Shown in pieces: positions 1-54,466 of a stretch of 54,466 bases of DNA. The first letter of the stretch is position 1; every line of letters starts with the position of its first letter. The translations under genes were made by a program, and so were the position numbers. The notes below the pieces were generated by a model. That model had not been told where the DNA came from. It searched no databases and saw only the letters and a program-made list of their open reading frames with translations. Source of the stretch: a virus (taxonomy: Duplodnaviria > Caudoviricetes); IMG/VR virus record IMGVR_UViG_3300031965_000432, positions 1 through 54,466 of that record; one strand, written 5' to 3'.

Positions 1-637
1 TATTAGGACTACTCGACGATTTAGCGCTAGCCGTGTGGTTTATGGACGACGGCAGTTCATCGGGACCGTCGTCCGCGACGCTGTCGACGTACGCGTTACG
101 GAGCGAGGATGTTGCTCTGCTGGCGGAGCATCTGTCGGACTGCGGATTCTCCTGCAAAAGCACGCAGGGCGGAAAAGGCCCGACAGTGCGCTTTTCAGCA
201 CAAGGCGCGCGCAAACTACTAGAAACAATTTCGCCGTTCATGCACCCGGTGTTTCAATACAAACTAGACAGAAAGCCGCGCCCAAAAACTGCGCGTGTTC
301 CCCGGGTACAGGCGCGCCGACTGGCGCACTGCGCCATTTGCAACGCGCCGTTCCGCCCGTCACGATCTGCCACGACGTGTGGGAAGGAGCGATGCCGAAA
401 GGCGCTCAATGTACGGCTTGTGACGGCGCACAGGCAGCGGCAGCCCGACCAGGTTACCGAGATTATCTGCGTGATTTGTGGCGAGGTCACGGTTACGCGA
501 AGAAGGCCACGCAGCCGCCCGCTAAGTCAGACATGCAGCCGCCAGTGCCGCGCGAAGCTGTCATGGATGACACGGTTTACTGTCTCGACGTAGAGACTAA
601 TCACAACTTCTTTGCTGATGGGGTACTCGTCCATAAC
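1..637 (+). mobile_element. Intein 1 of UvrD helicase, C-terminal part (starts 53852)
   Basis: Block F/G TVYCLDVETNHNFFADGVLVHN followed by +1 Cys (638-640). Confidence 0.92.
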
Positions 638-39385: not shown

Positions 39386-42323
39386 TGCTCTCCGGCTCCT
39401 TTGGCTCGAACGACTCCACGATCTCCGAAATTAGACCACGCTCGTCTCGTACGACCCTGCGTACTCGCTGAATCCGTGCGCGATCCTGCGCCGGCGCCAT
39501 GCCCGCCGCTGCATCCGCCTCGTCGAACGCCTCCATGATCCGCTGTCGCGCATAAGGCACAAGGCTCTCGCGTACGTACGTAGCGTTCCGCGCCGTCGCC
39601 TGCCGTATACGCTGCTGGTCAAGGTCCGATAACATTCGCCCCGGCGCCGCGAGCCGGTACGCCTTCGGTAGTTCGCGATCACCGAGCGCAAGCAGTTCGG
39701 CCTCGAAGTCTTGTATCAGCGGTGGCAACCGGCGTGAGCGTTCTTCGGGCGCAAGGTCGAGTAGCTCACGCGCCGCGCGATCGATGAACCGCTGCGCCGA
39801 TGCTACGAGCTTGTCCTGGTACGCGTTGGTCGCACGTCCCATGCGCTCATGCGCGTCGCGGCCTTTGAGTGCTCGAGCGCCGCCCGTGGCCTGCGTACCG
39901 GATACGTCTTCGTCGACCATCTCGCCCTCAGTACGACCTTGCTCATTCGCCTGCGTATCGTCGTTGACGGCAGCGTTGGGCAGTTTGTCTTCTTCGGTCA
40001 TTAGGTCCAACGCCTCTTGTGGAATATCGCCATCCTGCTGGAGCAACTGACGCGCCACCGCCGGCGTGAGCACGCCCGTGGTTGTGTAGATCTGAAATCG
40101 TTCGGCACGAAGCTTTCTGGCCTGCTCCTCACGCTGCTCGAAATCCGGATCGGACTCATCCCATCGAAACGTCACGCTGCGAGGCAGTACGCCGTAGAAG
40201 TTCAGCAGATGGGCAAGCTTCTTTATGAACAGGCCCTGCCCCTTGCCCCGTGATTTCATCGCAAGGGTCTCGGCCTCGGCACCGGTACCAATCCCACGCC
40301 CCGGCAGCGGTGCAAAATCCTGGTAATCGCGCCCGAACGCCATCGCCACCTGTGCGATGTACCACTTGTTCCAGACCTCGTAGTCGAAGCCCTCGGGCAG
40401 GCTAGCGAGGTTGATCTGCGTTGTGTTGAGATTGAGGCTCGGATCAATTCCACCCATTAGCACTGGTGGCATGAACCGGACCGATCCACGGTTGTCCGCG
40501 TTCTCTTTGGCCTGTCGAATCGCATCCGTTATCTGCTTGGTCTGTACGCCGGATACTAGCCATATGCTCGTTGGGTCCCGCCCGGATATCTTTTCGTCCT
40601 GGTACTGCTGGACCGATCGCATGATCTGCGCCGCTTTGAGCACGCGGGTAAGCGCGCAGTTGTGAACCACCACGCCAGCCGTGATGAAGTTGTGATTTCC
40701 TTCGACATCGATGCAATACACGGTCTGTGCTGATGGCGGTCCATCCCGACTGACGACCGCGCGATCAATGAATCGTTCGGCCGTTCCAAGGTTCCACCGG
40801 CCCATATCAAACGGTTCAGATTCGGGCGGTAGCTTATAGCGCATGGAGGGCGGAACAAGGGGCGCGATGTACGCGAATAGGGCTGCGCTGCCTTTGACGC
40901 TGAACCCCAGGTGATAACCGTCGATGTCCTTACCGGCTCTATAGAGACGGCAATCGAACCCCGCCGCCGTGAGGATGTCGGCTGCGCCCTGAACATCTTC
41001 ATCGGGATACCCACATGTTCCGATTCGGGCCGTCGGACGGCGGTTGTGGTCATCGCTGAGGCGCTTGTAAATAGTGCCGTCGTCTAGGTACCACGCGGCC
41101 AATAGCTCAGGTGACAGGTGGCGCTTCAGAAGGTCCAGAGGAATGCGCTTCTCACCGTTCCGATAGAACGTCGAGCGCAATCCCACGAAAGCCGCCTGTG
41201 CTTTCGTCATGGAGTGCGACATGCCCCGCACTTCGTCGTGCCACTGAGTCCATCCGAATTCGGAGAGAGCCGCATGCTTGAGTTCTAGCCAGTCAGCATT
41301 GCGTGTTAGGTGCGAAACGGAGAGAGATGCGCGATCGCCAGTGCGCCGCATACTGGCATCGCCCAGCATGGTTCCAATGACGAGTCGTATCTGACGGCTG
41401 TTCGGAGACGGCGCCTCGGTCACGATGGGGTCGCCCGGTTGCAACCGCCCGGCGTTCACCCACCCACTCGGCGTCAGAATTGGATGGTCCTCGGTAACCC
41501 AAGAATTACGACTCTTGTCACCGCGCGTGAGTTGAGACAACGCTCCTCGCACGTTGACCCAAGAGCGACCGTTTCGCTGGTTTTCATACCAAGCCGTAAT
41601 TGGGCGTGGCTCCAACTCACCGCGCTCATTGACCGACAGCACAAGGCGATTTGATTTTTCACGTACTAGTGTGCGAATGCGTTCCGACGTTCCATCGGCC
41701 ATGCGTACCTGCGAATCGCCAGCTAGGCAATACTGGATCCCTCGATCCCACTCACTCGCGCTGGGAAGTTCGGCCACGATGATTACCTGGTGCCGCTTGA
41801 GCTCGTGGCGTTTACCCTCACGATCCCAGTAGACCACCGGTCGGAACGGATCACCCGTCCGCAGACATCGCCGCGCGTCTAGCGTCTTGATGCCCACTAC
41901 AGCATCGGTCTCGCTGGGGCCACGACGCACGATCTCGATGAATGCGCCATTGTCCTGGCTATACAGATCGAGGCTTAGCTGGGTGATGAATCCCGTCCAG
42001 CCATCGCCCCAGTTAGCCTCGTGGAGCATGTCCTGAGCGGCACGGACGGTATTCGGTGGGCCTTCAAGCTCCCACGTCAGAGACGCATTCTGGGCAGCGA
42101 CGGTGTAGACCGCGCTCGATAGCACGGTCTCTTGTGAGATGAACTGACGTAGCTTCTTGTCGCGCTCGCGGTGCGTCGACCATCCCCACGGCGGCGTATC
42201 GTCGGCGGCGCTCGCCAGCCACAGAACACCCTCGCTGCCGAACATGCCGCCGAAGCCCTGGCTCGGGTCGAATGGGTCCTCAACGGATCGGCGGATCGCC
42301 TGCGTCGAACGATCTTCTGCCAT
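39360..42323 (-). CDS. portal protein with intein and C-terminal extension
   Basis: Follows TerL; DNGAFIE, IA.AFG.D..DF, G..T....R; intein at 40659-41729. Confidence 0.8.
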   Translation of the reverse strand: MAEDRSTQAIRRSVEDPFDPSQGFGGMFGSEGVLWLASAADDTPPWGWSTHRERDKKLRQFISQETVLSSAVYTVAAQNASLTWELEGPPNTVRAAQDMLHEANWGDGWTGFITQLSLDLYSQDNGAFIEIVRRGPSETDAVVGIKTLDARRCLRTGDPFRPVVYWDREGKRHELKRHQVIIVAELPSASEWDRGIQYCLAGDSQVRMADGTSERIRTLVREKSNRLVLSVNERGELEPRPITAWYENQRNGRSWVNVRGALSQLTRGDKSRNSWVTEDHPILTPSGWVNAGRLQPGDPIVTEAPSPNSRQIRLVIGTMLGDASMRRTGDRASLSVSHLTRNADWLELKHAALSEFGWTQWHDEVRGMSHSMTKAQAAFVGLRSTFYRNGEKRIPLDLLKRHLSPELLAAWYLDDGTIYKRLSDDHNRRPTARIGTCGYPDEDVQGAADILTAAGFDCRLYRAGKDIDGYHLGFSVKGSAALFAYIAPLVPPSMRYKLPPESEPFDMGRWNLGTAERFIDRAVVSRDGPPSAQTVYCIDVEGNHNFITAGVVVHNCALTRVLKAAQIMRSVQQYQDEKISGRDPTSIWLVSGVQTKQITDAIRQAKENADNRGSVRFMPPVLMGGIDPSLNLNTTQINLASLPEGFDYEVWNKWYIAQVAMAFGRDYQDFAPLPGRGIGTGAEAETLAMKSRGKGQGLFIKKLAHLLNFYGVLPRSVTFRWDESDPDFEQREEQARKLRAERFQIYTTTGVLTPAVARQLLQQDGDIPQEALDLMTEEDKLPNAAVNDDTQANEQGRTEGEMVDEDVSGTQATGGARALKGRDAHERMGRATNAYQDKLVASAQRFIDRAARELLDLAPEERSRRLPPLIQDFEAELLALGDRELPKAYRLAAPGRMLSDLDQQRIRQATARNATYVRESLVPYARQRIMEAFDEADAAAGMAPAQDRARIQRVRRVVRDERGLISEIVESFEPKEPESNGRQSDLS
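40659..41729 (-). mobile_element. Portal intein with in-frame LAGLIDADG endonuclease
   Basis: CLAGDSQV, TEDHP, GTMLGDAS, AWYLDDG, VYCIDVEGNHNFITAGVVVHN|C. Confidence 0.93.
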
Positions 42324-42381
42324 TAGTCCCGCATTGGGTCTGTATTACCCCTGCATCGGTCTTACGTAGTGTACGTGTTTC

Positions 42382-44862
42382 TTACGCCTGGTATCGACGG
42401 GTCCATAGCCCGTAGCGAGTGCAGTCACAATTCGAAACAAGTATGCCGTTTGCTATGTACTCGTGCGCGCCCTCAACCGTTAGATTGAAAACGTCCGCGC
42501 GCTCCCCGAGATCGTCTACGTGTTCCACATAGTCGGGAGCAGAACCTAGCTCGATCGTATCGATTCGACGTGAAGAGCTGCCCACAAAGCTCGCATGGCT
42601 TGGTGACATTATCGAGCCCTTGAGCACGACGCCATGCGCTTTTACACCGGTTTGAACAAAACCGGGTGCCCTTGGCGTCGGCATTCCGAGATCGGTAACC
42701 CGCGCCGCACTGGTCACACTGGTAGTCCCGAAACGGGGCATTCGCCCAAATCCGTGCGCCGTGCAAGCGATGCCACGCTCTCCCCTCCGGCGACCGGTGC
42801 CAATGCACCGCTGCCCTTTGCGCCTTTGCCAATCCCTCCGGATTACCCGGATGCTCGTGAAGTCGTTGATGCGCAGTGCCCTCAATCGACTCAAGGTTTG
42901 AGAGGTTGTTGTTGAGCGGGTTTCCGTCCCGATGATGAACGTGCCATCCACGCGGGATCGTTCCATGCGCGGCTTTCCAGACGGCCCGGTGTAAGTACGT
43001 TTCACATCCACGCGTGTGTGTTCGCCGGTAGTAGGTTCGGAGAGAAATCTTTGGGCTGTTTGGGTAACGCCGATACTCGACGCCACCAAACACGATTCGG
43101 TCGACTGCCATACCAACATCCTATCACCGTATCGCAATCCATTCAACGGAACCCAGCCGCGCCCGTCGATCCAGACCGGGTGATTGGGCGTTCCCCGAAG
43201 TGCTCGGCCGTCACTGGTTGTGAGTGTCACCACGGGAACCAGTGATCCTGTCTGCGCCTGTCTAGTAACTAACCGCCACCCATACCGCGTCCACGCCCGG
43301 TCTCCAACGACCACCGATTCAATAGGGATATCGCCGCGTGCGGTAGTTACGAGCGTCCCGGCAGCGAAGCAACCATGGTCGTCAATCTTCACCGGCTTGG
43401 GCTGTCCGGTACCCTGCCGTGCCGTAGCCGCGTCGCCTTCCGCATAGTGTAGCGATTGCATCTCACGGATCAGGTTCCGGCAACGAGGATGCACGCGTAG
43501 TAATGCGCGGTCGTTGCCGTCACGCACGAACGAGCGTGTGACCTTGACGCCCTCCTCGACACTATGCGTCGCGCCGAAGGTCTGGATGCCCAGCTCCCAG
43601 ATGCGCGCCTTGAGTTCGACTGCGCTGGAATCCACGTAGGCGATCTCCGGCGCCGGCCACGGCCACGATGCACCTACGCTTAGGCCAGGTAGCTTTGCGC
43701 CTGCATCATGGCGGTCGTCGTCCTTGAGGTTCGGCCAGCGATCCAAGGCTTCGACCCGTACGCCTAGACAATCGGCCACGGTGCGCTCCGCTAGCGCCTG
43801 GGTCTGGTAGCACTCCCCGATAACGTTCACGCCGCCATCGGATCGTTCCTGTGCGAACAGTACGACGCGCGGATGGTAGCTAGCCGAGCCTGGTCCGCCG
43901 CCATGCGCGTAGCCATCATCGACCCACCATTCGATAGATCTCGCAGGGTCATACTCTGCGAGGTCATCCACGTTGTCGGTTGTCCAGTTGTCAAACACCA
44001 GCCCCTCGAGCCCGACGAACCGGCCTTCTAGCTCCTGCTCGGCCATCAGACCCACGTAGATGGCCTTGAGGCTGGCGTAGTACGCGGGGTCGAGGTTGTC
44101 GGCGTTCTGATCAATCGATCCGTGGAACGTCTCGATTAGCTGCTGGTCGCCGAGCGCCGCGCGAAGCGCCATGAGCACGCGCTCGGATTCCTCGGGGTCG
44201 TCGCTGAACTGCTGACGGTGCAGAACGTTATAGAGCCAGTGCCCAATGCCGCGCGGCGTGGTAGTGATCCACATCTGTGGGCTAGGTCCGACGCGTACAG
44301 TAGCCAGCAGCACGTCGAACGCGCCGCGGTCCATTTTCCGGGCCGCCTCATCGAACCAGACCCAATTGAGGTTCGGGCCTCGCCACGCGTCGGGATCTTC
44401 GATGCCGCCGTACCAGACGTTAGCGCCGGTGCTGAACGTTAGCCGTTTGTGCTGCTTGTTGTGGTTGGTGACGAGGTTCCAGGGTATCCAACGCTCCGCC
44501 TCGGGCCATGTGGATAGTGAGAAGTGCGGAACGTTCGGTCCCACTATGGCGCCGTCGAGCCCTCGCCATATGCGCGGCGCGCCTTTCTGGATGCCGGCGG
44601 CCGTCTTCCCCGAACCACGGCCACCGACGAATGCGGCCACGCGTGCCGTACTAGCTAGGAACGCGCGCTGCCCGTCGCCTAGCGGTTCGTAGGTAGTGCC
44701 GTCGGCCTTGGTAAATCGAAGCTCGTCGTCTGGTCTGGTGATACGGTTCGCAACGAGTCGCTTCTTAGCTTCGACACGCGCGACGGCAATCGCGAACGCT
44801 TCGCGTACGTGCGACGCGATCGGCTTAGATTCTGGACTGCTACGCGCCGGGCTTTGTAGCAT
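42382..44862 (-). CDS. terL: terminase large subunit with intein
   Basis: GGRGSGKT, WFDEAA, TTTPRG, nuclease motif DHG|CD; start could also be 44889. Confidence 0.93.
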   Translation of the reverse strand: MLQSPARSSPESKPIASHVREAFAIAVARVEAKKRLVANRITRPDDELRFTKADGTTYEPLGDGQRAFLASTARVAAFVGGRGSGKTAAGIQKGAPRIWRGLDGAIVGPNVPHFSLSTWPEAERWIPWNLVTNHNKQHKRLTFSTGANVWYGGIEDPDAWRGPNLNWVWFDEAARKMDRGAFDVLLATVRVGPSPQMWITTTPRGIGHWLYNVLHRQQFSDDPEESERVLMALRAALGDQQLIETFHGSIDQNADNLDPAYYASLKAIYVGLMAEQELEGRFVGLEGLVFDNWTTDNVDDLAEYDPARSIEWWVDDGYAHGGGPGSASYHPRVVLFAQERSDGGVNVIGECYQTQALAERTVADCLGVRVEALDRWPNLKDDDRHDAGAKLPGLSVGASWPWPAPEIAYVDSSAVELKARIWELGIQTFGATHSVEEGVKVTRSFVRDGNDRALLRVHPRCRNLIREMQSLHYAEGDAATARQGTGQPKPVKIDDHGCFAAGTLVTTARGDIPIESVVVGDRAWTRYGWRLVTRQAQTGSLVPVVTLTTSDGRALRGTPNHPVWIDGRGWVPLNGLRYGDRMLVWQSTESCLVASSIGVTQTAQRFLSEPTTGEHTRVDVKRTYTGPSGKPRMERSRVDGTFIIGTETRSTTTSQTLSRLRALRINDFTSIRVIRRDWQRRKGQRCIGTGRRRGERGIACTAHGFGRMPRFGTTSVTSAARVTDLGMPTPRAPGFVQTGVKAHGVVLKGSIMSPSHASFVGSSSRRIDTIELGSAPDYVEHVDDLGERADVFNLTVEGAHEYIANGILVSNCDCTRYGLWTRRYQA
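42473..43111 (-). CDS. HNH endonuclease with Zn fingers, overprinted in the TerL intein
   Basis: LHRAVW...VHHRDGNPLNNNLSNLE....H...H; CDQCG..FCSNRC, CELCG..FCSRLC. Confidence 0.9.
   Translation of the reverse strand: MAVDRIVFGGVEYRRYPNSPKISLRTYYRRTHTRGCETYLHRAVWKAAHGTIPRGWHVHHRDGNPLNNNLSNLESIEGTAHQRLHEHPGNPEGLAKAQRAAVHWHRSPEGRAWHRLHGARIWANAPFRDYQCDQCGAGYRSRNADAKGTRFCSNRCKSAWRRAQGLDNVTKPCELCGQLFTSNRYDRARFCSRLCGTRRRSRGARGRFQSNG
43118..43146 (-). promoter_or_regulatory. internal promoter for the nested HNH gene (leaderless)
   Basis: TTGAAT-17-TAGGAT with extended TG; 6 nt before ATG 43111. Confidence 0.7.
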
Positions 44863-45310
44863 CGGCCAGGATGCGCTCGGCTTCGGCAACGGCGGCGCGG
44901 CGATCCTCGTCGCTCAATGCGTACTGCTCAGACAACTTCTGTAGCTCTCCCTGCATATCGATCTTGATGGGCGCGTCGAGTCCTAGGTACTTAGCCCGGC
45001 GATCCATGACACGAAGGATTCGATCCGTTACCGCGTGATCCAGTCCCTCGGATGCTTTGGCACGCTTCCAAAGGAACTTTAGGAGCTCATCAAGCCGCTG
45101 CAACTCTAATTGCCGGATCGTATCGGCTGGTTCTCGTCCGCGCTCCTCTAACTCCATTTCGATGAACTGCGCAGCGCGTTGATAGCTCACGCCCAACTCA
45201 CTACCGATCTGGTGGAGCGTCTTTCCTTCGACTCGCATTTGGAGCGCGCGCACGGCTTTTATCCGGGTGTTCGCACGCATGACGGAGTGTGCGGTCGTTC
45301 TACGCTGCAT
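44840..45310 (-). CDS. terS: terminase small subunit
   Basis: HTH (GKTLHQIG.ELGVS), LELQRLD, RRAKYLGLDAP; upstream of TerL; TAGGCT-6 nt-ATG upstream. Confidence 0.8.
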   Translation of the reverse strand: MQRRTTAHSVMRANTRIKAVRALQMRVEGKTLHQIGSELGVSYQRAAQFIEMELEERGREPADTIRQLELQRLDELLKFLWKRAKASEGLDHAVTDRILRVMDRRAKYLGLDAPIKIDMQGELQKLSEQYALSDEDRRAAVAEAERILADATKPGA

Positions 45311-45319
45311 GGTTCAAGC

Positions 45320-45466
45320 CTACCGCAACCCGTACGGCGATGATGGTCGCAACGAGTCAATGATCCCTGCCCACCAAGCAACGATCACGGCCAGGAGCCC
45401 GAAGATCAGAACCCCGACGCCGGTCCACGTCAATGCTTTGGCCATTGATATTAGGTCCTGGACCAT
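45320..45466 (-). CDS. small membrane protein
   Basis: Single TM segment; GGAG SD. Confidence 0.5.
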   Translation of the reverse strand: MVQDLISMAKALTWTGVGVLIFGLLAVIVAWWAGIIDSLRPSSPYGLR

Positions 45467-45779
45467 TCTCCACCCTCCAGGATCGGCTGGCCGTTGTCGT
45501 GCCAACCAAGTAAACGATACTCCACTTTACCGAGTCGGGATGCGATTTTGCGTTCGGCGGCGATACCCTTGGAATCGTCCCATCCCTCCATGGTGGCATC
45601 GATCAGCAGCGCGTCGCAGGAGCCGAGGAATCGCTCGTCGAACGCTTGCCAGTACTCCCAGTCGGTCGGGCCTCCTGACCGAACAGCAAGTGGGTGCGAG
45701 TGCACAATCGGAGCGAACACCGGCCATGAGCCGCGTCGTAGCGGCGTTCGCGAACGCCAGAGTCGGAGAGTAGCTTCAT
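45451..45779 (-). pseudogene. degenerate second DUF1937 gene (5' deletions, frameshift)
   Basis: ATG 45779 (MKL.SDSGVRERRY) is 59 nt from, and out of frame with, VFAPIVHSH...CDALL..EGWDDSKG; the IYLASPY motif is missing. Confidence 0.65.
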
Positions 45780-46711
45780 CGTTTCACCTCGAATACGTGT
45801 TGGATCATCGGGGCACCGGACGGTCCTTTGAGATACGGCGCGATCCAGATCGTTCGATGTCGATCAAGCGACGGGTACCATTGAGATCGATAGTGACCTG
45901 ATACCCACCACTGATGCCGGTATTCACGGTCTGCCGCGTCGAAGTCTCGCTGGGCATTTGAGGCTTCGCGACGCAGGGTTACAACGTGGAGAAGCGTCTC
46001 TGTTGACATGTGCGCGTCGCGCAAAGACTTGCGAATTGGTCGTGAAAGATGCAGGAGACTCGAACTGACATATGGAGAATTTATAAAGGCAATAAGCTTT
46101 GTCAGAATAGCCCACTCACTCGCTTCCACCTCTTGATTAGACGCGTCATTGCCGCCCAACCGTTGCCCATAATGACCCGTACGCCCCACGACCCCCAATC
46201 TGTCCTTTGCAATTCTACCCCCCATATACAGGAGAAGATTGCCCCGCTCGGGATTGTCTACAACAACGGTCCAGCCCCAGTCGAGTTCCTTCGCGTGATC
46301 TTGATCGCGTAATACCAGCTCGCCTTGCCAGAGAATGCTCATGCTAGGGTGTGGGAGGTCTACGTTGAGTGTGTAATCTGGCAGCGGCGCCGCTAGTGCT
46401 ATCTCTAAAATCCGTCTTGTTATAAAGTATGTGGGTGAATCGTGCAGGGTAAGCGCTAGTAGTACCAATCCACGGAAATCTCCATCAAAAGGAGCGGCGC
46501 CCAGTGCGGGATCGACGTCGCCGACAAGGACAAGCCCCGCGACCATGAACTGATACCCAATCGCCTCTACCGGTCCGGCGGGCCCCCAACGGTCCTCAGG
46601 TCCCGCCACCTCCATAGCATGTCGCGCGAGCGGATGATTCCACCAGGCGCGTGCAAGCGCCTGTCGCTTTTCCTCACTGCGTACAAGTTCAGCAATTTCC
46701 GAGGCGTTCAC
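45776..46711 (-). CDS. hypothetical protein with conserved phage C-terminal motif
   Basis: W.VSGH.RSQWYPS...H..IWIAPY.KGP; visibly more AT-rich interior. Confidence 0.7.
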   Translation of the reverse strand: MNASEIAELVRSEEKRQALARAWWNHPLARHAMEVAGPEDRWGPAGPVEAIGYQFMVAGLVLVGDVDPALGAAPFDGDFRGLVLLALTLHDSPTYFITRRILEIALAAPLPDYTLNVDLPHPSMSILWQGELVLRDQDHAKELDWGWTVVVDNPERGNLLLYMGGRIAKDRLGVVGRTGHYGQRLGGNDASNQEVEASEWAILTKLIAFINSPYVSSSLLHLSRPIRKSLRDAHMSTETLLHVVTLRREASNAQRDFDAADREYRHQWWVSGHYRSQWYPSLDRHRTIWIAPYLKGPSGAPMIQHVFEVKR

Positions 46712-49071
46712 CGCAACCCTCCGATCACTGAATGAACCACGTTCTCACGCTTCTCAAGCGCTCGGTATATAGCCCCGTCAATCGTCCCCTGCGCCACGAG
46801 GTGTACGTACGTCACGTTTCGCCCCTGGCCGGGCCGCAAGACGCGTGCCCTCGCCTGGTCATACTCCGCCAAACTATGCGATAACGAATAGAAAACACAG
46901 TACCGCGCCTGTACGAGTGAGATACCAAGTCCGCCGGCTTGGATCTGTACCGCGATCAATGGCGCCGTGCCGTGCGACTCGCCATTGCGTCTACCCCAAT
47001 CCGCGTACTGATTCATGCGCCCAGATATCTCCAGGTAGGGACGGTGAGCCATTTGGCTCACCGCGCGAATCGCATCCAGGTCCGCATGGAATCGTCCGAA
47101 CACCGCCACCGGTTCAGTAGGGTCGATGTCTTCCAATAAATCCGCCAGCGCGCGAGCCTTGGCGTGTGACACGCGACGTTCGACGCCATCGTCGTCAGTC
47201 ACCACGCCGCCGGTAGTCTGCTGCAATCGCAGGATTCGAACCAGCGCATTGGCCGCCGTGACCGTACCGTCAGCGATGTCCGCGATCAGGTCGCGCTCCA
47301 GCTTCCGGTAAAACCGCCGCGCCTCCGGCTCGAGCTCGCACACACGTTGCAGGTCCACGTGGTCCGGTAGGTCGATAACGTCGGCAGTCTCGACGCGGGT
47401 GGCTATCGACCACATTCGCGCCTTGAGATCATCGAGATTGTGCCAGGCCCACGGCTGTAGTATGCCCGCACGCATTGACGTTACGCCGTCGTGTGAGCCC
47501 CAGCGCGCGGGTCGTGTGTATCGCGCCTTGAACGAGGTGAACGTCCACGGCACGCCGCCCGTGCTGTACACCCGCGGCTCTATCGCTCGATACTGCGCAT
47601 AGATGCCGAGCGGTCCGTCGGCGCCGCTGATAGGCGTACCGGTTAGCTCTAGACGATGCGGAATGCCCGATGCGATCTTGGCGACCATGCGCGACTGCTT
47701 ACCGGCGGGGGCTTTCATGCGGTGGCAGTTGTGGACCAGTAGTCCGCCCGCGAAGTAGTTTCCCGTTTCAGTCTCTAGGTTGTAGACCGTACGGCGTCTA
47801 GGACCGTGTTCGCCACTGCGTCCAGGTCGCTCATCACTTCGGGATTCTTGAACCTCAGCACGCGCCAGCCATGATCTCGGAGCCAGGAATCCTTCCGCGC
47901 ATCCGCGGCCCGCACCCGCGAGGTTTCGTGAGATTGCCCGTCCACCTCGATTGCGATCTTTAACACCGGGTCCGCGATATCGATCTTGTAGTGAGGCGGC
48001 TTGCCCTTGGTGCGCGTACCTGTCCTCACCACGACCTCGGTGGCCCACCCCAGCCGCGCTGCTAATAGTCGCTGCGGAACTGAAAGCGGCTTCCCGTTTC
48101 CCCCATTGAGGTGCGCGTATCCCCGCTCGCGTAATGCGATCTGAGACTTCCGCTGAACCCGCGGATCGTTGAATGGATTGGTCGGACCCGATAAATGCCG
48201 CGCGAGCTTGGCTTGTACCTCGGGGCGCGAACGTATCTGATTCATTGCCACGCGCGCCTTCGCCACTAAGTCGGGGCGATTCCGCATACGCCAGCGTCCT
48301 GAACACCTCTTGCCGCAAAACTCCGCACTTGCCCTCCGGCCCATAAAGGAGCGACCGCACTCCTTGCAAAGCCCCGGAAATCGAAGCGGGTTCTTGTATG
48401 GCACACGGGGATTTTATCACAGTGAGGCCCGCTGCGTCTAGTGCCTTTACGTACCCAACCTCTTGTGTCCACACCGGATGTTCCGGCGTCATCGCCACCC
48501 CATTGACTTGCACGAGGTCGCCGACAAAGGCGCGGCTGAATGTAGACCGCACACGAGTTGGCACTACAATCCCGTCCCGCTCGCCCCACACCGCATCGCC
48601 TTCACGGAGCGCCTCGATCGGTACGGTCCCAGCAGGCGTGTCAACCGCGGTGCCAGCCGGAAAACACTCATCGCAGATAAGCGCATCCCATTCCGTGGCT
48701 GCCAGCATCTCGCCGAACTTATTGCCAAGCGGGATAGCCTCGTAATTCACGATCGCGGTTACCGGGTGGTTCCACGTCAATGCTTTCTTGATTTGCGCCA
48801 TGCGCTCTTTGACGGGCCCGGATGCTAGTTCGGTAACGATCGGATCGAACGTTGCAAACTGCTCGAGCTGGCCAGCCCAAACGCCGCTCGCGACCGACTT
48901 AGGTGCAAGGATCAGCGTCCGTCGTGGTCGGGTCTCGTTCAGGCACTCAATAGCCGTCCGGCTCTTGCCGGCACCCATGTCGCTAAAGTTGGCCGCGCCT
49001 CGGCCTTGCGCCCAGAGTGCTAGATGGTGGTCGCGGTGGGCGATCTGGTGGGGCCAGGGAGCGCTCATCAC
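46708..49071 (-). CDS. SNF2-family SF2 helicase with intein
   Basis: DMGAGKS, LAP, NYE, ICDE|CH, LTGTP, GGLGISL, QARARVLRPGQ. Confidence 0.93.
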   Translation of the reverse strand: MMSAPWPHQIAHRDHHLALWAQGRGAANFSDMGAGKSRTAIECLNETRPRRTLILAPKSVASGVWAGQLEQFATFDPIVTELASGPVKERMAQIKKALTWNHPVTAIVNYEAIPLGNKFGEMLAATEWDALICDECFPAGTAVDTPAGTVPIEALREGDAVWGERDGIVVPTRVRSTFSRAFVGDLVQVNGVAMTPEHPVWTQEVGYVKALDAAGLTVIKSPCAIQEPASISGALQGVRSLLYGPEGKCGVLRQEVFRTLAYAESPRLSGEGARGNESDTFAPRGTSQARAAFIGSDQSIQRSAGSAEVSDRITRAGIRAPQWGKREAAFSSAATISSAAGVGHRGRGEDRYAHQGQAASLQDRYRGPGVKDRNRGGRAISRNLAGAGRGCAEGFLAPRSWLARAEVQESRSDERPGRSGEHGPRRRTVYNLETETGNYFAGGLLVHNCHRMKAPAGKQSRMVAKIASGIPHRLELTGTPISGADGPLGIYAQYRAIEPRVYSTGGVPWTFTSFKARYTRPARWGSHDGVTSMRAGILQPWAWHNLDDLKARMWSIATRVETADVIDLPDHVDLQRVCELEPEARRFYRKLERDLIADIADGTVTAANALVRILRLQQTTGGVVTDDDGVERRVSHAKARALADLLEDIDPTEPVAVFGRFHADLDAIRAVSQMAHRPYLEISGRMNQYADWGRRNGESHGTAPLIAVQIQAGGLGISLVQARYCVFYSLSHSLAEYDQARARVLRPGQGRNVTYVHLVAQGTIDGAIYRALEKRENVVHSVIGGLR
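47775..48404 (-). CDS. DUF559/Vsr-like PD-(D/E)XK endonuclease with N-terminal Zn finger, overprinted in the SNF2 intein
   Basis: CKECG..FCGKRC; YKIDIA...IAIEVDGQSH....D..KD.WL...GWRVLRF.N. Confidence 0.9.
   Translation of the reverse strand: MPYKNPLRFPGLCKECGRSFMGRRASAEFCGKRCSGRWRMRNRPDLVAKARVAMNQIRSRPEVQAKLARHLSGPTNPFNDPRVQRKSQIALRERGYAHLNGGNGKPLSVPQRLLAARLGWATEVVVRTGTRTKGKPPHYKIDIADPVLKIAIEVDGQSHETSRVRAADARKDSWLRDHGWRVLRFKNPEVMSDLDAVANTVLDAVRSTT
48411..48440 (-). promoter_or_regulatory. internal promoter for the nested DUF559 gene (leaderless)
   Basis: TAGACG-18-TAAAAT with extended TG; 6 nt before GTG 48404. Confidence 0.7.
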
Positions 49072-49589
49072 TTCACCCCCAACGGAGCGCGCCCTAGAAT
49101 ATGTATTGCCTCAAGCTCTAGTAGTTCGTCAATCCGAAGAATCACCTCGTTGCGAGTCAGGTCTTCGCCTAAATATCTAGCTGCGTAGTGTCCGGCCACG
49201 TAGGGACGGAACCACTCAGAATGAGTAAACATCCACGGGCGATCCATCTTGACTTTACCTTGAATCGTTAGGTGGCAGCGCTGGCAGAGCGCCACGAGAT
49301 TCCACCAGCGGCAGTCTGACTTATCCCCGTTCAGATGGTGCACTGTGAGGATGCGCCATTGCGCCTCGAATCCAACCAGCCCGACCGGCCTCGTCGGTCC
49401 GTCGTGGAGGCAGTGGTCGTCACAGCGAGTCCATTCGCCCGACCCCATGGCGCCGACTCGATACGGATGCTGGCACCGCACGCAGCGATGATGTGCCCGT
49501 GTACGCACGCAGTCGCCAATTGAATCCCAAACGGTTGGGTAGCCGTCCCGGCGGAGTTCGTTGGCGGTGTAGCGCCTGAATATGGTCAT
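49068..49589 (-). CDS. HNH endonuclease-domain protein
   Basis: RCVRC...LTVHHLNGDKSDC...NLVALCQRCH. Confidence 0.85.
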   Translation of the reverse strand: MTIFRRYTANELRRDGYPTVWDSIGDCVRTRAHHRCVRCQHPYRVGAMGSGEWTRCDDHCLHDGPTRPVGLVGFEAQWRILTVHHLNGDKSDCRWWNLVALCQRCHLTIQGKVKMDRPWMFTHSEWFRPYVAGHYAARYLGEDLTRNEVILRIDELLELEAIHILGRAPLGVK

Positions 49590-51082
49590 CCTTCCCTCCA
49601 TGCGCCGACGCTAGTACGTCCGCTGGTTGTCGATCCTTCTACCATTAGTGATCCTCGTCTCCATCCGGCCTGCGTCAGTCGTTTGTATACGTCACTGATA
49701 TCTAGCTTCCGGTACCCGTTGTGAAATAGCCGACCGTGTAATTGCTGAGGGCGAAGCCATAGCCGCCCATTGATACGGACGATGCTCTGATTCAATGCGC
49801 TACGCAGTTCGTCAGGCTCGGGCTCGTCTATCACTGGCTGAATTTCTGTCCAGTGTGAGAGCCAATCCTCCACGATCTCTCGAGCGTCGGTCGGTTCGAA
49901 CTGCTCGATCCTTACAAGCGACCGCATCGCGGCCGCCCAGCGAAGCCACTCGGGCGCCTTAACTGGCTTGAGGATCAGCGGCCCGCCGTCTAGGAGGCGA
50001 TGCCGGATAGTGGTTTGATCGCCGATTCTCGGACCCAGTGAAACCGAACGGCCGTCCCGAAACCGGAGTGTGTATTCCGGGTTTGCGCCTTGCGATAGCG
50101 ACCAGTCCGCCACGGATGGCACGTCTAATACCGCCATGGCCAGTAGTGCGTCTACATGGTCGATGCGGTCCTTCGGGGTAAGGCTTTTTATATCCGCGTC
50201 GGGGATTGCCAGGCGGAGCGCTCGTGTCCGTCGCTGCTCGCTTCGTAGATGCGTCCGGTGAACAGATTCCGCGATACCTCGCACTTCCTTATCCGACAGC
50301 TTCGGATCGCAAAGACGTGCGTTCACTCCATGTAGTTGCTGCAGCACCGATTCGAGCGCCTCGCCCTTGCCGTAAAAGTGTCCGGCGATCTGGGTCAGTG
50401 CAAGGTTGCGAAGACCCGATGGGATAGACATCAGCATTACCCGCTGGATGTCGAACGGCTCGTCGTCTACTACATAGATCGACGAACTCAGCGCAGATAC
50501 GACCTGGAAGCTTTGAATGATGTGCGCGGGGCATGGCGGAATTGTCGTATCCCACGGTTCCGCCGACGCCTCCCACGTGTACGGTCTCCCAGATGCGTGC
50601 ATGGACGGTGGCGCCACGACGTATCCTCGGGCTGCCTTGATGTCGATGCCTGGTAGTATTGGGCGACTACGCAAGTCCAGTTCCGAGGGCCACTGGTAGT
50701 AGTAGTGCTGACCACCGCTACCGGTGATGCACACCGGTCCGTCCGGCAGCGCGCCGTGCTTTTCGATAAGTTCCTCTAGCGACGCCTCGCCGCCATGACG
50801 CGGATCGATATCAAGAACGACTAGACCGGCCAGCTTCCCCGTAAGCACGCCTATGTTCGCGTCCGGCCAGCGTTGCCACCAAGCGGACACCGCTTCGCGT
50901 GTTGGGTGGGCATCCCACAGCGGCGCCAGCTCACCCTCCGCTAGCCGCGGATGCTTACCAGGATGCCCACAGGTCGCGTCACCGCAACTACACCGGCCAT
51001 CCGTCGGCGTATGCAACGGAACGACGCCCCAGCCAAGGGCGACTAGTCGCAGGGGATCTTCCGCTCCGCGCGTCACCTGCAT
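49586..51082 (-). CDS. bifunctional DNA primase/polymerase (Prim-Pol + PriCT-1)
   Basis: CSCG...C..PGKHP, NIGVLTG, VLDID, TGSGGQHYY, GIDIK...GYVVAPPS.H, G.RN..L. Confidence 0.93.
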   Translation of the reverse strand: MQVTRGAEDPLRLVALGWGVVPLHTPTDGRCSCGDATCGHPGKHPRLAEGELAPLWDAHPTREAVSAWWQRWPDANIGVLTGKLAGLVVLDIDPRHGGEASLEELIEKHGALPDGPVCITGSGGQHYYYQWPSELDLRSRPILPGIDIKAARGYVVAPPSMHASGRPYTWEASAEPWDTTIPPCPAHIIQSFQVVSALSSSIYVVDDEPFDIQRVMLMSIPSGLRNLALTQIAGHFYGKGEALESVLQQLHGVNARLCDPKLSDKEVRGIAESVHRTHLRSEQRRTRALRLAIPDADIKSLTPKDRIDHVDALLAMAVLDVPSVADWSLSQGANPEYTLRFRDGRSVSLGPRIGDQTTIRHRLLDGGPLILKPVKAPEWLRWAAAMRSLVRIEQFEPTDAREIVEDWLSHWTEIQPVIDEPEPDELRSALNQSIVRINGRLWLRPQQLHGRLFHNGYRKLDISDVYKRLTQAGWRRGSLMVEGSTTSGRTSVGAWREG

Positions 51083-51255
51083 ACGCCTGCATACGCCGTG
51101 AATACGCGCCTAATGGGGCTCTCTAACAGAAGTGAATACGCTGAATAGCGTATTCTGGCAAAAAAGTGGAGGGCCGCTTTTTTTCTTAAAAGGGCATATT
51201 CGGCGTATTCATACCTGTTAGCTAGGCGTATTCTGCGCGTATTCAGCGCGTATTC
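51080..51255. repeat. iteron-like GAATACGC cluster, putative replication origin
   Basis: GAATACGC at 51100 and 51134; GCGTATTC at 51148, 51203, 51226, 51237 and 51248; CATACGC at 51080 and 51090; A/T tracts at 51160-51191. Confidence 0.7.
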
Positions 51256-51302
51256 CTGTCGGCGCAAGAAAAGGAACGGCCTTCGCAGATGCCCAGAGGG
51301 AG

Positions 51303-51453
51303 GCTGCCAAGCAACCCAAAGGAATTGGTGCGAAGGCCGTTGTCGCCATGATACCTACCTTCTGACTTGAGCACCCCAACTCCTTTTGTTGCTTGGCAGC
51401 AAGACAAACGTACATGCGCGCCGTGGCGATGTCAAATGCCACGGCGCGCATGT
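51303..51453 (-). other. structured non-coding segment (two hairpins)
   Basis: 13-bp gctgccaagcaac/gttgcttggcagc (51303-51315/51388-51400) plus inner pairing; 16-bp perfect stem 51412-51453. Confidence 0.65.
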
Positions 51454-51455
51454 CA

Positions 51456-52154
51456 CTACGCCGCGTCCGCTTGCGCGACGGGGATGCCCTTCAGCGCAGG
51501 CACGAGCCGAGCTGCATACACGCGGATCGCGTCGGACTCCTCGGCGGCGAGTGGCTCGCCCCGCCGGAACACCGGCCGGGAGTACCCGACGCCGCCCTTG
51601 CTCTGGGTCTTCTCGAGCGTAATCACCGTCTCGACGCCGAACGGATCCGTATTGGTATCGAACAGCGCGAGATTGTAGACGTACGCCGCTCGGAACGCCG
51701 ACGGCGGCGCCGGGAAGTACAGCGGCAGCCGGTGGCCGGGCTGCAGCAGAAAAACCCGCGTGATATGCCTGCAAGCCTGCGCGTTGCCGCCATCCGGCTT
51801 GCTGCCCCATTGCGACAGCGGGCAGGTTAGGCAGTCTCCACCCGGATCGCCGTGGCCAGTCACCGCATCCTGTGACGAACAATCGGGTGGCTGCCCGCCG
51901 CCCGTATCCTCAATCGAACCCGCCCAATACGCGCGCACCGGCTGCCGCAGGATCATTACCCCGCGAAGCTCTTTCGTGGCGTCGCCCGATGGCAACTCAA
52001 AATTGAGCCCGCCGCCGGCGGGAACTTTGACGGTCGGCAGTACCGTCACATCGATCGCGCCGCCGCCAGCCGCCATCTCCGCGAACTGGCGGGCGACGTC
52101 ATCATTGATCGTGAGCGCGTACGACTCGCGCGTTGCAAGTGAATCCTTACCCAT
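51456..52154 (-). CDS. putative ssDNA-binding/recombination protein
   Basis: KVPAGGG..F, RAYW..PPDCSS.D, C..CP.SQWGS, AC; position in the replication module. Confidence 0.6.
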   Translation of the reverse strand: MGKDSLATRESYALTINDDVARQFAEMAAGGGAIDVTVLPTVKVPAGGGLNFELPSGDATKELRGVMILRQPVRAYWAGSIEDTGGGQPPDCSSQDAVTGHGDPGGDCLTCPLSQWGSKPDGGNAQACRHITRVFLLQPGHRLPLYFPAPPSAFRAAYVYNLALFDTNTDPFGVETVITLEKTQSKGGVGYSRPVFRRGEPLAAEESDAIRVYAARLVPALKGIPVAQADAA

Positions 52155-52196
52155 TGAGCATTGCTCCTTGAAATATGAACTTTGGTCCGTGTGCGG

Positions 52197-52589
52197 TTAC
52201 GAGCCGCGAACGCGTAGCCCCGTCCGTTTCTCGACCTTGAGCGCGCCACGGATTGACTCAGGGATGGTGGCTAGCGTTCCCTCTCGTTCATGCTCTTGGT
52301 ACCACGCCCGTAACTTCGGATGCGAAATCGTTACGAGCTCAAGCAATCCGTTATCACTGAACAGCGAGTGCAGTAGCGCCGTATCGCCGCCGACCAGCGT
52401 TGACGTGTGTGAGTAGACCGTTTGGCCTGCGTCTGTCTTGACGGACGTTACGCGCTCGGCTAGGAACTCCTCGAGCAGCGCCGCCTCGACGGCAACTAAC
52501 TCGTCCTTGGCCTCTCGAAGCTCGGCCTCGAGCGCGCGTTTGCGCTCCGTGGCGTCCGTGAACCGGTCGACTAAGTGCGGTGTGGGCAT
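52197..52589 (-). CDS. conserved phage replication-module hypothetical protein
   Basis: N-terminal coiled coil, V.SVKT..G.T, H..LRAW..E; first gene after the leftward promoter. Confidence 0.65.
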   Translation of the reverse strand: MPTPHLVDRFTDATERKRALEAELREAKDELVAVEAALLEEFLAERVTSVKTDAGQTVYSHTSTLVGGDTALLHSLFSDNGLLELVTISHPKLRAWYQEHEREGTLATIPESIRGALKVEKRTGLRVRGS

Positions 52590-52626
52590 TGATCGTTCCT
52601 CCATGCGCTACGTCACCCGTAGCAGG

Positions 52627-52659
52627 TGCTAGAATAGCGCGTACATGCGTTCACGTCAA
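52627..52659. promoter_or_regulatory. overlapping divergent promoters
   Basis: Minus: TTGACG-17-TATTCT (52659-52631). Plus: extended -10 TGcTAGAAT (52627-52635). Confidence 0.65.
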
Positions 52660-52673
52660 ACGAAGGGGCGTTT

Positions 52674-52886
52674 ATGGCTATAACGCCATTGACCGAAAAA
52701 ACGGCGCGTCGTTGCGCCTGTGGGTGCGGAGAGACGTTTATTCCGCGGCGCCGGAATCATCGCTACGTTTCCCCCGCGCATCGCATGGCGTACCATCGCC
52801 GTTCGACGCCGGCCATCCGACTCACTGAGCCGCGCATCCGGCGCATGATGGAAGCCGCGTTAGCCGCCGCGATGGAGTCGGAATGA
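52674..52886 (+). CDS. small Zn-finger protein
   Basis: CACGCGETF...Y.S..HR; AAGGGG SD; ATGA coupling to the HNH gene. Confidence 0.6.
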   Translation: MAITPLTEKTARRCACGCGETFIPRRRNHRYVSPAHRMAYHRRSTPAIRLTEPRIRRMMEAALAAAMESE

Positions 52887-53284
52887 CGCGGCGAGGTCGT
52901 CCACGCGCGCGGAACCTTCTAGAGACTCGAACGTGTGAAACGTGCCTCCAGCCGTACCATCCGTTAAAGGAAAAGCCGTTTCAGAAATACTGTTCGCGGC
53001 CGTGTGCAAACGCAGGCACGGCAAGACGGACAGCGGCGGCGAGAGCGGAAAGGCAACGCGGTCGCGGCGACGGCAAGGCGTACCGCAAGCTCAATGGTCG
53101 CCACATGCACCGCGTTATTGCGGAGGCTACTATCGGGCGCGCCCTTTTACCGAAGGAAGTAGTGCACCACATCAACGGGAACATCCTCGACAACCGTCCC
53201 GAAAACCTTGCCGTACTGCCGTCTCAGGGAGAACACGCGCGGATTCATGCGCGTGCTCGTAGAAAGGAGGTTGCCAAACAATGA
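52883..53284 (+). CDS. free-standing HNH endonuclease
   Basis: CETC..YCSRPC; HRVIAE..IGR.L...EVVHHINGN..DNRPENL....H..IH. Confidence 0.9.
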   Translation: MTRRGRPRARNLLETRTCETCLQPYHPLKEKPFQKYCSRPCANAGTARRTAAARAERQRGRGDGKAYRKLNGRHMHRVIAEATIGRALLPKEVVHHINGNILDNRPENLAVLPSQGEHARIHARARRKEVAKQ

Positions 53285-54466
53285 GCTTGCGTCGTCTCCG
53301 AATAGTCGGGCCGCCGGGCTCGGGTTGACAAAACCTCAACAATTAAGTCGATGTGCGAGCGCTGGGTCGACTCCGGCGAATACGAACCATCTGACTTCGT
53401 CCTAACGAGCTTCACCAAGGCCGCCGCCGTCGAGCTCGCTGGCCGTATCGACGTGCCCGAAGGGCACGCAACAACGATCCATGCGCTTTGCTACCAGGCG
53501 CTAGGCCGCCCGCCGATCGCCGAGAAAGGCGCATTGCTCAAGGAATGGAATGAGTCGTGTAAGCGCGACGACTGGAAGATCCCCGTTACGGGCGCAGGCC
53601 TTGACGACGGCGTGAGCGCGCAAGACGGTGCCGTAGGCGATGCGCTCAGCATGTATAGCCTAGGGCGCGCTCTCCTACATCCGCTAGATCACGTCTGGTA
53701 CGACCAAGGCTGGGAGCTTCGGGACTTTATCAAGACGTGGGAGGGATTCAAGCGAGACACGGATAGCATCGACTTCACAGACATGCTCACGATGGGCCTA
53801 GAGTCGGTGCCGAATCTTCCACAAACGCCGCGCGTACTACTTGTCGACGAGTGCCTGCCATACAGCTCACGGGTCACACTGGCCGACGGGTCAACACTGC
53901 CCATCGGGGAAGTTGTTCACCGCAAACTAGAGGCATCTGTTTTAGCCTTCGATGAAGCGAGCGGTCAGGTAGTTGCGCGAAGAATAGTTGGTTGGCGCGC
54001 GGTCCCCCGGCGGGAACGAAAAATTGTGGAGTACGGCGGACTGCGCGCGACGGAAGACCACCCGATATTTGTCGGCAACGGCATGTACATGCCGTTGCAC
54101 CGGGTTAGTATGTTGCACCGCGCTGTGCTATGCTTAGACCATGAAGCGATACAACGCGAGCGACGCTCTAACCCCTACGGAGCGATCGATTGTTCTCGGG
54201 TCGCTGCTTGGCGACGCTTCGATCTCCCGAAATCCCGGACCGGGCGGGAACGCCCGCGTGAAGTTTGTGCAGGGAGTGGCGCAGCACGACTACCTAACGT
54301 GGAAAATGCGGTCTCTCCAGCGCTGGGTGCGATCCCCGATTCAAGGACCACAAATCAGCGGCTTCGGGGGAATCGTCTACCAATTCTCCACAACATCACA
54401 CCCTGTCTTTACCGACCTGCATACATTGATCTACGCGGACAAGTGTCGGCAGAAGCGCATCAGTCT
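53281..54466 (+). CDS. UvrD-like helicase, 5' part; Walker A interrupted by 4 extra nt
   Basis: AAGGAGG SD, MSLRRLRIVGPPGSG-[TGAC]-KT, SFTKAAA.EL, TIHALC, DF.DML, LLVDE|C; frame from 53330 is open to the window end. Confidence 0.88.
54126..54134 (+). promoter_or_regulatory. internal extended -10 promoter for the nested LAGLIDADG gene (leaderless)
   Basis: TGcTATGCT, then 6 nt, then ATG 54141. Confidence 0.65.
54141..54466 (+). CDS. LAGLIDADG endonuclease, 5' part (continues at 1-593), overprinted in intein 1
   Basis: Hand-translated MKRYNASDALTPTERSIVLGSLLGDAS...QHDYLTWK...STTSHPVF..L...Y...KRI. Confidence 0.88.
   Translation, partial: MKRYNASDALTPTERSIVLGSLLGDASISRNPGPGGNARVKFVQGVAQHDYLTWKMRSLQRWVRSPIQGPQISGFGGIVYQFSTTSHPVFTDLHTLIYADKCRQKRIS

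Follow-up and report, generated by a model that had tools for sequence, protein, structure and literature searches.

How does an intein keep its own reading frame open across a complete nuclease gene that is written in a different frame of the same DNA? The question is raised by three inteins in the 54,466-base IMG/VR virus record IMGVR_UViG_3300031965_000432 (the whole stretch of DNA that was analyzed, referred to below as the window), which lie in the genes for the large terminase subunit (TerL), an SNF2-type helicase and a UvrD-type helicase. In each of the three, the intein frame is unbroken, its middle reads as low-complexity filler, and a complete nuclease open reading frame (ORF) occupies another frame of the same strand. 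At a probability of about 0.8, we read these as "non-canonical" inteins in which the endonuclease loop of a Hint domain is occupied by a free-standing-type homing gene in another same-strand frame. The layout is genuine, maintained by selection and widely distributed; it is of a published kind, to which the window adds members.

The TerL gene is located on the minus strand (positions 42382 to 44889; this is the longest ORF, and the true start is unsettled) and matches the Pfam families Terminase_3 (1.1e-7) and Terminase_6N (2.3e-7). Its intein (42430 to 43371, minus strand; 314 amino acids, aa) starts with CFAAGT, the Cys being residue 1 (Cys1), carries TPNHP at block B, and ends with ILVSN followed by Cys. 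Nested within it in frame +2 is a gene for a 212-aa HNH_3 nuclease with two zinc ribbons (42473 to 43111, minus strand; Pfam HNH_3, 5e-14). The gene for the SNF2-type helicase (46708 to 49071, minus strand; Pfam SNF2-rel_dom, 5.8e-12, and Helicase_C, 1.1e-6) contains a 313-aa intein (47728 to 48666, minus strand) that starts with Cys, has TPEHP, and ends with VHN followed by Cys. The gene nested in this intein in frame +1 (47775 to 48404, minus strand) has a GTG start and encodes a 209-aa DUF559 (Vsr-like) protein with an N-terminal zinc ribbon (Pfam, 3.7e-13). The gene for the UvrD-type helicase runs along the plus strand through the window ends: its first part (53351 to 54466) goes on from base 2, and its second part (2 to 2581; Pfam UvrD-helicase, 9.5e-8) holds the end of one intein and the whole of another. 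The first of these, UvrD-1, is 417 aa long (53852 to 54466 and 2 to 637, plus strand), starts with Cys, has TEDHP, and ends with VLVHN followed by Cys. The N-terminal part of its nested LAGLIDADG_2 gene (54141 to 54466, plus strand, frame +1) contains the first motif, LLGDA, and matches positions 1 to 91 of the Pfam profile (6.9e-15); the C-terminal part (2 to 593, plus strand) contains the FMDDG motif followed by two zinc ribbons and matches positions 98 to 167 (7.3e-10), the whole protein being 305 aa.

The nested genes start 260 (TerL), 262 (SNF2), and 289 (UvrD-1) nucleotides (nt) after Cys1 and stop 43, 47, and 44 nt, respectively, before the intein end. A preliminary description made from the sequence had given these coordinates, the frames (+2, +1, and +1), start offsets of 260 to 289 nt, and stop offsets of 43 to 47 nt, and all of them held on recomputation. 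Its naming of the nucleases as HNH, DUF559/Vsr-like, and LAGLIDADG was borne out by the Pfam families, each of which was assigned to its nested ORF above the cutoff, and with this its view that three unrelated nuclease families share one layout was also supported.

All three inteins have a nucleophile as the first residue, the TxxH of block B, and a C-terminal Asn followed by Cys. The TerL intein together with its neighbors scored 36.8 bits against Intein_splicing (cutoff, 35.8) and 31.8 bits against Hint_2 (cutoff, 28.4), and the SNF2 intein scored 30.7 bits against Hint_2. For the UvrD-1 intein, a profile match was obtained to the C-terminal block alone, at 26.1 bits, which is below the cutoff; its designation as an intein therefore rests on its motifs and on its relatives (for example, L030, at 47.2 bits). 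Residues C1, T61, H64, and N314 were invariant in eight TerL-type inteins. The insertion sites fall at conserved positions of the host proteins: the TerL intein is located between DDHG and CDCTRYGLW in the nuclease domain, the SNF2 intein in helicase motif II (DE|CH), and the UvrD-1 intein also in motif II (DE|CQD).

On the nuclease side, the nested HNH_3 protein (PF13392) scored 52.1 bits (cutoff, 24.8), the DUF559 protein (PF04480) scored 49.7 bits (cutoff, 20.6), and the two halves of the LAGLIDADG_2 protein (PF03161), with both the LLGDA and FMDDG motifs present, scored 55.8 and 39.5 bits (cutoff, 25). Across 10 HNH sequences, core residues H57, H59, H60, N68, N72, H81, and H85 were invariant, in the WHVHHRD, N, and H columns. 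The DUF559 core YKID...IAIE.DG..H, which we take to contain the catalytic residues, is common to the window gene and its counterparts in Vibrio phages CP-T1 and K391.

The UvrD-1 intein had been described as running through the junction of the window ends. This was confirmed, with the correction that base 54466 and base 1 must be counted as a single base (an overlap of 1 nt) for the intein frame and the nuclease frame both to carry on across the join. When the ends were joined in this way, an alignment of the LAGLIDADG nuclease with six relatives showed no residue missing across the junction. Since both frames continue and nothing is missing at the join, the record, which is labeled "linear" and has a CheckV completeness of 73%, is most readily taken to be a complete genome that is circular or circularly permuted. 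Its GC content is approximately 0.60 throughout. The only sequencing run found to contain the window is a soil metagenome (run X1), probably its own source. A second assembly, from the same run, stops within approximately 20 nt of the same place as the window end, a coincidence for which we have no explanation.

The same layout was found in 16 IMG/VR loci (L014 to L022, L025 to L030, and L055, with L019 and L020 being identical) and in six cultured phages, which together with the three window inteins make up the 25 rows (24 distinct) that were compared. Each nuclease family kept the same relative frame in all of its relatives with the nested layout. The nuclease starts 242 to 292 nt after Cys1 across the relatives and, wherever the end was resolved (21 rows; the ends of L026, L027, and L029 were rederived from tblastn, and Tetrasphaera phage TJE1 was excluded), stops 11 to 55 nt short of the intein end. 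Nine of the 12 IMG/VR loci with HNH relatives (L014 to L022) carry the gene nested in an intein at +2. Seven of these nine host ORFs (six of eight distinct) match Pfam terminase families; L018 reads as TerL by eye, and the host ORFs of L015 and L017 gave Hint or intein matches only. The remaining three HNH loci (L013, L023, and L024) are free-standing genes with closed alternative frames. A single IMG/VR relative of the DUF559 gene (L025), with 50% identity to the window gene, is nested at +1 in the intein of a ResIII/DEAD helicase. Of 66 LAGLIDADG loci that were classified, the six closest (30 to 45% identity) are nested at +1, 28 are in frame in long ORFs, and 32 are short ORFs. Four of the nested LAGLIDADG hosts (L026, L027, L029, and L030) are UvrD helicases by Pfam, L028 matched no family, and L055 gave a weak terminase match.

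Among cultured phages, the HNH gene lies at +2 under an annotated terL in Tetrasphaera phage TJE1, Acinetobacter phage Highwayman, Clostridium phage phiCDHM19, and Rhodobacteraceae phage LS06-2018-MD07, and the DUF559 gene lies at +1 under an annotated helicase in Vibrio phages CP-T1 and K391. Because these phages propagate, their TerL or helicase presumably works. Neither the nested nuclease gene nor the intein is annotated in any of the six GenBank records, and literature searches pairing TJE1 or CP-T1 with inteins found nothing. A search of phage records with the DUF559 protein matched 42 records, 37 of them from Vibrio phages, of which two were examined for the layout.

Intein distribution among the relatives is sporadic. 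The window TerL has only distant relatives among named phages (24 to 28% identity, in Micromonospora, Streptomyces, and haloarchaeal viruses), and a DNA search of 50,697 phage records with terL gave no match. None of the 11 nearest TerL relatives (446 to 473 aa) has an intein at the site, and seven of the 11 read straight through the equivalent D..D..RYGL motif. The SNF2 insertion site is shared by CP-T1, K391, and L025.

Chance openness of the intein frame was assessed in 25 ORFs of at least 250 codons of this genome, with the inteins in question excluded. None of 7,022 windows of 200 codons was free of stops in frame +1, and none of 7,022 was free of stops in frame +2, the stop density in the alternative frames being 0.038 per codon. 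In a stricter test, the synonymous codons of each nuclease ORF were shuffled 2,000 times and the intein frame was scored as open or closed. It remained open in 0.0% of the shuffles for the SNF2 intein and in 0.2% for UvrD-1. Over all the compared rows, the open intein frame had a shuffle P value of ≤0.005 in 13 of 25, with values of ≤0.001 in AT-richer phages. Avoidance of stop codons across homologues, which the preliminary description had proposed to examine, was complete: the filler frame holds no stop in any of the 25 rows, and the third frame holds between 3 and 33.

Mean pairwise identity in the nuclease frame was 38% for HNH, 50% for DUF559, and 37% for LAGLIDADG; the filler read from the same DNA gave 24, 24, and 19%, respectively, and the splicing lobes gave 39 to 47%. 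The few invariant columns in the filler sit opposite the HNH core motif. These comparisons indicate that the nuclease frame is selected for protein function and that the filler in the intein frame is selected only against stop codons. AlphaFold models were built for the TerL intein and the HNH protein from small alignments (8 and 10 rows, respectively). In the intein model, residues 1 to 90 and 277 to 314 are beta-rich, with pLDDT (predicted local distance difference test) values of approximately 80 to 95, and these N and C lobes are predicted to form the Hint fold. Residues 91 to 276 have a pLDDT below 50 and almost no secondary structure; modeled as disordered, they agree with the earlier characterization of the intein-frame reading as motif-less filler. 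The HNH model has a mean pLDDT of 84.5 and comprises a beta-beta-alpha core, a helical linker, and two ribbon-like units. Architecture, frames, conservation, stop avoidance, and the difference between modeled fold and disorder were each shown.

A mode of action can be proposed. Translation of the host gene would yield a precursor in which the nuclease gene, read in the wrong frame, supplies a disordered stretch of approximately 190 to 290 aa linking the Hint lobes. The Hint domain would still fold and splice and would thereby make whole the catalytic motifs of TerL, the SNF2 helicase, and the UvrD helicase. The nuclease, with its catalytic domain and zinc ribbons, would be translated on its own from an internal ATG or GTG located 260 to 289 nt into the intein. 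The nuclease could then cleave intein-less alleles of coinfecting relatives, and repair would copy the intein and the nuclease gene together.

Some points weigh against this interpretation. Expression, splicing, internal initiation, cleavage, and homing are steps that we infer, and so is the passive loop that the preliminary description had proposed. The TerL intein has Ser instead of His before its final Asn (42430 to 42435, VSN followed by Cys at +1). A Ser at this position was also seen in L015, L016 (SSN), phiCDHM19, and LS06-2018-MD07. Shuffling left the TerL intein frame open in 22% of cases (P = 0.22), which is not significant alone, and several HNH relatives likewise gave values of 0.16 to 0.51; support for the TerL case accordingly comes from the base rate and from the relatives, not from the shuffle. 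A clear Shine-Dalgarno sequence is missing before two of the three window starts, that of the TerL nested gene alone being preceded by AGGA, 7 nt upstream, and the SNF2 nested gene starts with GTG. Authors reporting another hidden HNH gene likewise noted no ribosome-binding site and suggested initiation without a Shine-Dalgarno sequence, in the portion of their paper available (PMC11855218). Finally, the second assembly, a Logan contig of run X1 (54,443 nt, depth of 15), showed 0 differences and 0 gaps against window positions 42000 to 54445 but was probably built from the same reads, so that it is not independent data.

Three other accounts of the layout, namely, an artifact of paired indels, a frameshift fusion, and a decayed relic, were considered and rejected. 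Sequencing or assembly errors in the form of paired compensating indels could mask endonuclease domains that are really in frame, and the window is indeed one metagenome assembly known from a run that is probably its own source. Nevertheless, the contig from a second assembler is identical over 42000 to 54445, the relative frames are repeated unchanged in 16 IMG/VR loci and six cultured-phage records from unrelated projects, and each of the three window genes has a stop in its nuclease frame 1 to 3 codons ahead of the start; we consider the relatives a stronger argument than the second assembly and regard an artifact as almost inconceivable. The upstream stops bear equally on how the nuclease is made. 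The preliminary description had it expressed as a separate protein, and it does read as a separate gene, with its own ATG or GTG and, in the three window genes, the close in-frame stop just mentioned; of 18 rows compared, 15 have such a stop 1 to 9 codons ahead of the conserved ATG or GTG. Separate initiation is thereby favored over a programmed frameshift that would fuse the nuclease to the N lobe of the intein. Both frames lie on one mRNA and the ribosome-binding signals are weak, as a frameshift would allow, but the upstream stops would leave only 1 to 9 codons for the shift in those 15 rows, no slippery heptamer was seen when the three window start contexts were inspected by eye, and one genome would need both +1 and −1 shifts. 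Fusion by frameshift is accordingly very improbable. It is somewhat less improbable, though still poorly compatible with the data, that the nested genes are no longer translated and that the inteins are mini-inteins with a junk loop. A recognizable ribosome-binding site is absent before two of the three starts, and the homing-cycle model predicts decay after fixation, as set out in the available parts of two preprints (bioRxiv 10.1101/2025.01.02.630785 and 10.64898/2026.09.14.751524). Relics would not be expected, however, to keep nuclease frames open at 37 to 50% identity against 19 to 24% in the other frame or to have intact HNH, LAGLIDADG, and DUF559 core motifs; the HNH nuclease is also modeled with confidence, and intein presence is sporadic among relatives.

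For TerL alone, the nested HNH protein might instead be a packaging nuclease associated with the terminase, its position in or beside terL reflecting function and not homing. Free-standing HNH genes do occur next to intein-less terminase genes: in L013 (435 to 2598), one lies between TerL and portal, just downstream of an intein-less terL, and in Acinetobacter phage BP10 (L096, 2495 to 4954), one lies just upstream of the intein-less terminase gene terS. Relatives in PAE1, CL2, and Shemara are located approximately 2 kb from a record end. HNH genes with zinc ribbons have been found next to cos and terminase genes (PMC3592412), and the idea was also raised in a brucellaphage study (PMC4422536). 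A free-standing HNH gene beside intein-less terminase genes fits either a homing gene parked at its target or a packaging helper. Against a packaging role, a DNA-level match to the TerL of BP10 was obtained in 60 Acinetobacter phage records, whereas the window HNH matched only BP10 and Highwayman there, and a DNA search with the BP10 HNH gene found it at full length only in BP10 itself, with one short partial match elsewhere. The absence of the intein from the site in the 11 nearest TerL relatives points the same way. A gene of such sporadic occurrence is more in keeping with a selfish element than with a cofactor that the phage requires. The same layout also occurs in helicases with DUF559 and LAGLIDADG nucleases, to which a packaging role cannot apply. 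A packaging function is thus unlikely, although less so than the three rejected accounts.

The LAGLIDADG sequences bear on the origin of the layout. A quick tree was built with Shimodaira-Hasegawa-like approximate likelihood ratio test (SH-aLRT) supports only and a midpoint root, after 11 of 66 rows were dropped (five duplicates and six of less than 150 aa). The window protein groups with L026 to L030 (support, 89), the sister of this group is a short ORF (89), and L055 lies among short ORFs (81); no nested LAGLIDADG protein groups with in-frame intein domains. This placement weakly favors entry of a free-standing gene into a mini-intein rather than the frameshifting of a domain that was once in frame.

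Five inteins were identified in this 54-kb genome (one each in TerL, portal, and SNF2 and two in UvrD), of which three carry out-of-frame nucleases, one carries an in-frame nuclease, and one has an in-frame middle of no family. The portal intein (40659 to 41681, minus strand; limits taken from the Pfam match to residues 215 to 555 of the portal ORF) has LAGLIDADG_2 in frame, in agreement with its earlier description as canonical, and served as a comparator. The other comparator, the UvrD-2 intein (1541 to 2398, plus strand; 286 aa), has an in-frame middle of approximately 170 aa and no nested ORF. Its middle gave no Pfam match even at an E value of up to 10 and shows no long ORF in other frames; it may represent an endonuclease domain that has decayed or that has yet to be described.

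Zinc-ribbon units of the form CxxCG...F...FC(S/G)xxC were observed in all three nested nucleases, at 42476 to 42739 (minus strand), 48225 to 48404 (minus strand), and 300 to 593 (plus strand). Pfam zf-FCS was matched only below the cutoff (E value of 0.04), and no zinc-ribbon family was matched above it. By BLASTP, the HNH ribbon unit matched the DUF559 unit at 3e-6 and the LAGLIDADG unit at 0.003. Similarity of these units across three unrelated nucleases suggests a shared DNA-binding module that has been swapped among homing endonuclease genes.

The layout had been thought to define a distinct and perhaps undescribed class of mobile element. This did not stand, as out-of-frame intein nucleases have already been published; the comparisons that follow draw on the parts of each source that were accessible. 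Gosselin, Arsenault, and Gogarten (bioRxiv 10.1101/2025.01.02.630785) reported actinobacteriophage inteins whose endonuclease occupies a reading frame of its own. As in the window, the endonuclease lies between the splicing blocks in another frame, the in-frame reading has no recognizable structure, and the hosts include TerL; the authors proposed that the layout arose when a free-standing endonuclease gene invaded an intein. The forms reported there are an endonuclease VII-like gene in frame 3, an antisense LAGLIDADG, an antisense VSR-like gene, and an in-frame HNH, whereas all those of the window are on the sense strand. In cyanobacteria, an overlapping-frame LAGLIDADG gene was described in the dnaX intein (Phillips, DeSimone, and Gogarten, bioRxiv 10.64898/2026.09.14.751524); its nuclease frame is under purifying selection, the intein frame is under no more than relaxed constraint, and a secondary invasion of a mini-intein was proposed. 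The host there is a gene of a bacterial chromosome and the frame is +2, in contrast to the phage UvrD gene and the +1 frame of the window. Both preprints credit Gorbalenya 1998, known to us through their citation, with first noting an out-of-frame case.

In 2015, an out-of-frame, intein-encoded HNH gene was reported inside the large terminase gene of brucellaphages (Tb, Pr, and others) (PMC4422536). As in the window, the HNH gene encodes a zinc ribbon and lies across the central part of terL in a different frame, and the authors attribute it to an intein. None of the 24 records matched by the window HNH (E value of ≤1e-3) is from a Brucella phage, and the brucellaphage gene, set apart here by record search and not by direct sequence comparison, probably belongs to another HNH lineage. 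Two further systems are partly similar. In the "fractured genes" of Dassa et al. (2009, PMC2677866), split inteins flank a free-standing Vsr-like or GIY-YIG endonuclease gene; the Vsr-like gene sits at the endonuclease site of the intein, and its 3′ end overlaps the coding sequence of the C part by 6 to 69 bp. This is paralleled in the window, where the nuclease stop, 43 to 47 nt before the intein end, falls within the C-terminal splicing blocks. In fractured genes, however, the intein frame is broken and two polypeptides are spliced in trans, whereas the window frame is open and would give a single precursor. The ShiLan domain is an out-of-frame HNH gene in the methylase gene of a phage (Arsenault et al. 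2025, PMC11855218). Here too the HNH is overprinted in an open host frame, no ribosome-binding site is detectable, and the in-frame reading is proposed to be a loop; unlike in the window, there is no splicing domain, and the loop remains in the mature protein.

A same-strand DUF559 gene, a same-strand HNH_3 gene (PF13392) in a continuous intein, and three such inteins in one genome were not seen in the accessible parts of the published accounts compared, and the supplement of the 2025 preprint may list more. What is new here is thus modest, namely, three nuclease families in one 54-kb genome and the same-strand DUF559 form. With the concept already published, the gain is one of breadth, in new combinations of nuclease and frame, three of them in one genome, and quantitative figures for stop avoidance.

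Gene callers miss the nested nucleases, and the records show the host proteins as terminases or helicases of excessive size. One stretch of DNA here has two coding roles under two kinds of selection, for protein function in one frame and for the absence of stops in the other. The case also supports the "splicing domain first, endonuclease later" view of intein mobility. More speculatively, out-of-frame nesting might be a stable, recurrent end state and not a brief step toward an in-frame fusion or a split intein. A guild of stand-alone endonuclease genes, whose catalytic heads (HNH, Vsr-like, and LAGLIDADG) are interchangeable on a shared FCS-like zinc-ribbon module for DNA binding, might use the nonessential loop of mini-inteins as a safe harbor in essential genes, an idea that we offer tentatively. 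If this is so, such partnerships would outlast deep divergence, with nuclease identities of 30 to 45% at an unchanged offset in hosts ranging from Actinobacteria to Vibrio and Clostridium, and a single phage could collect three such nested inteins independently.

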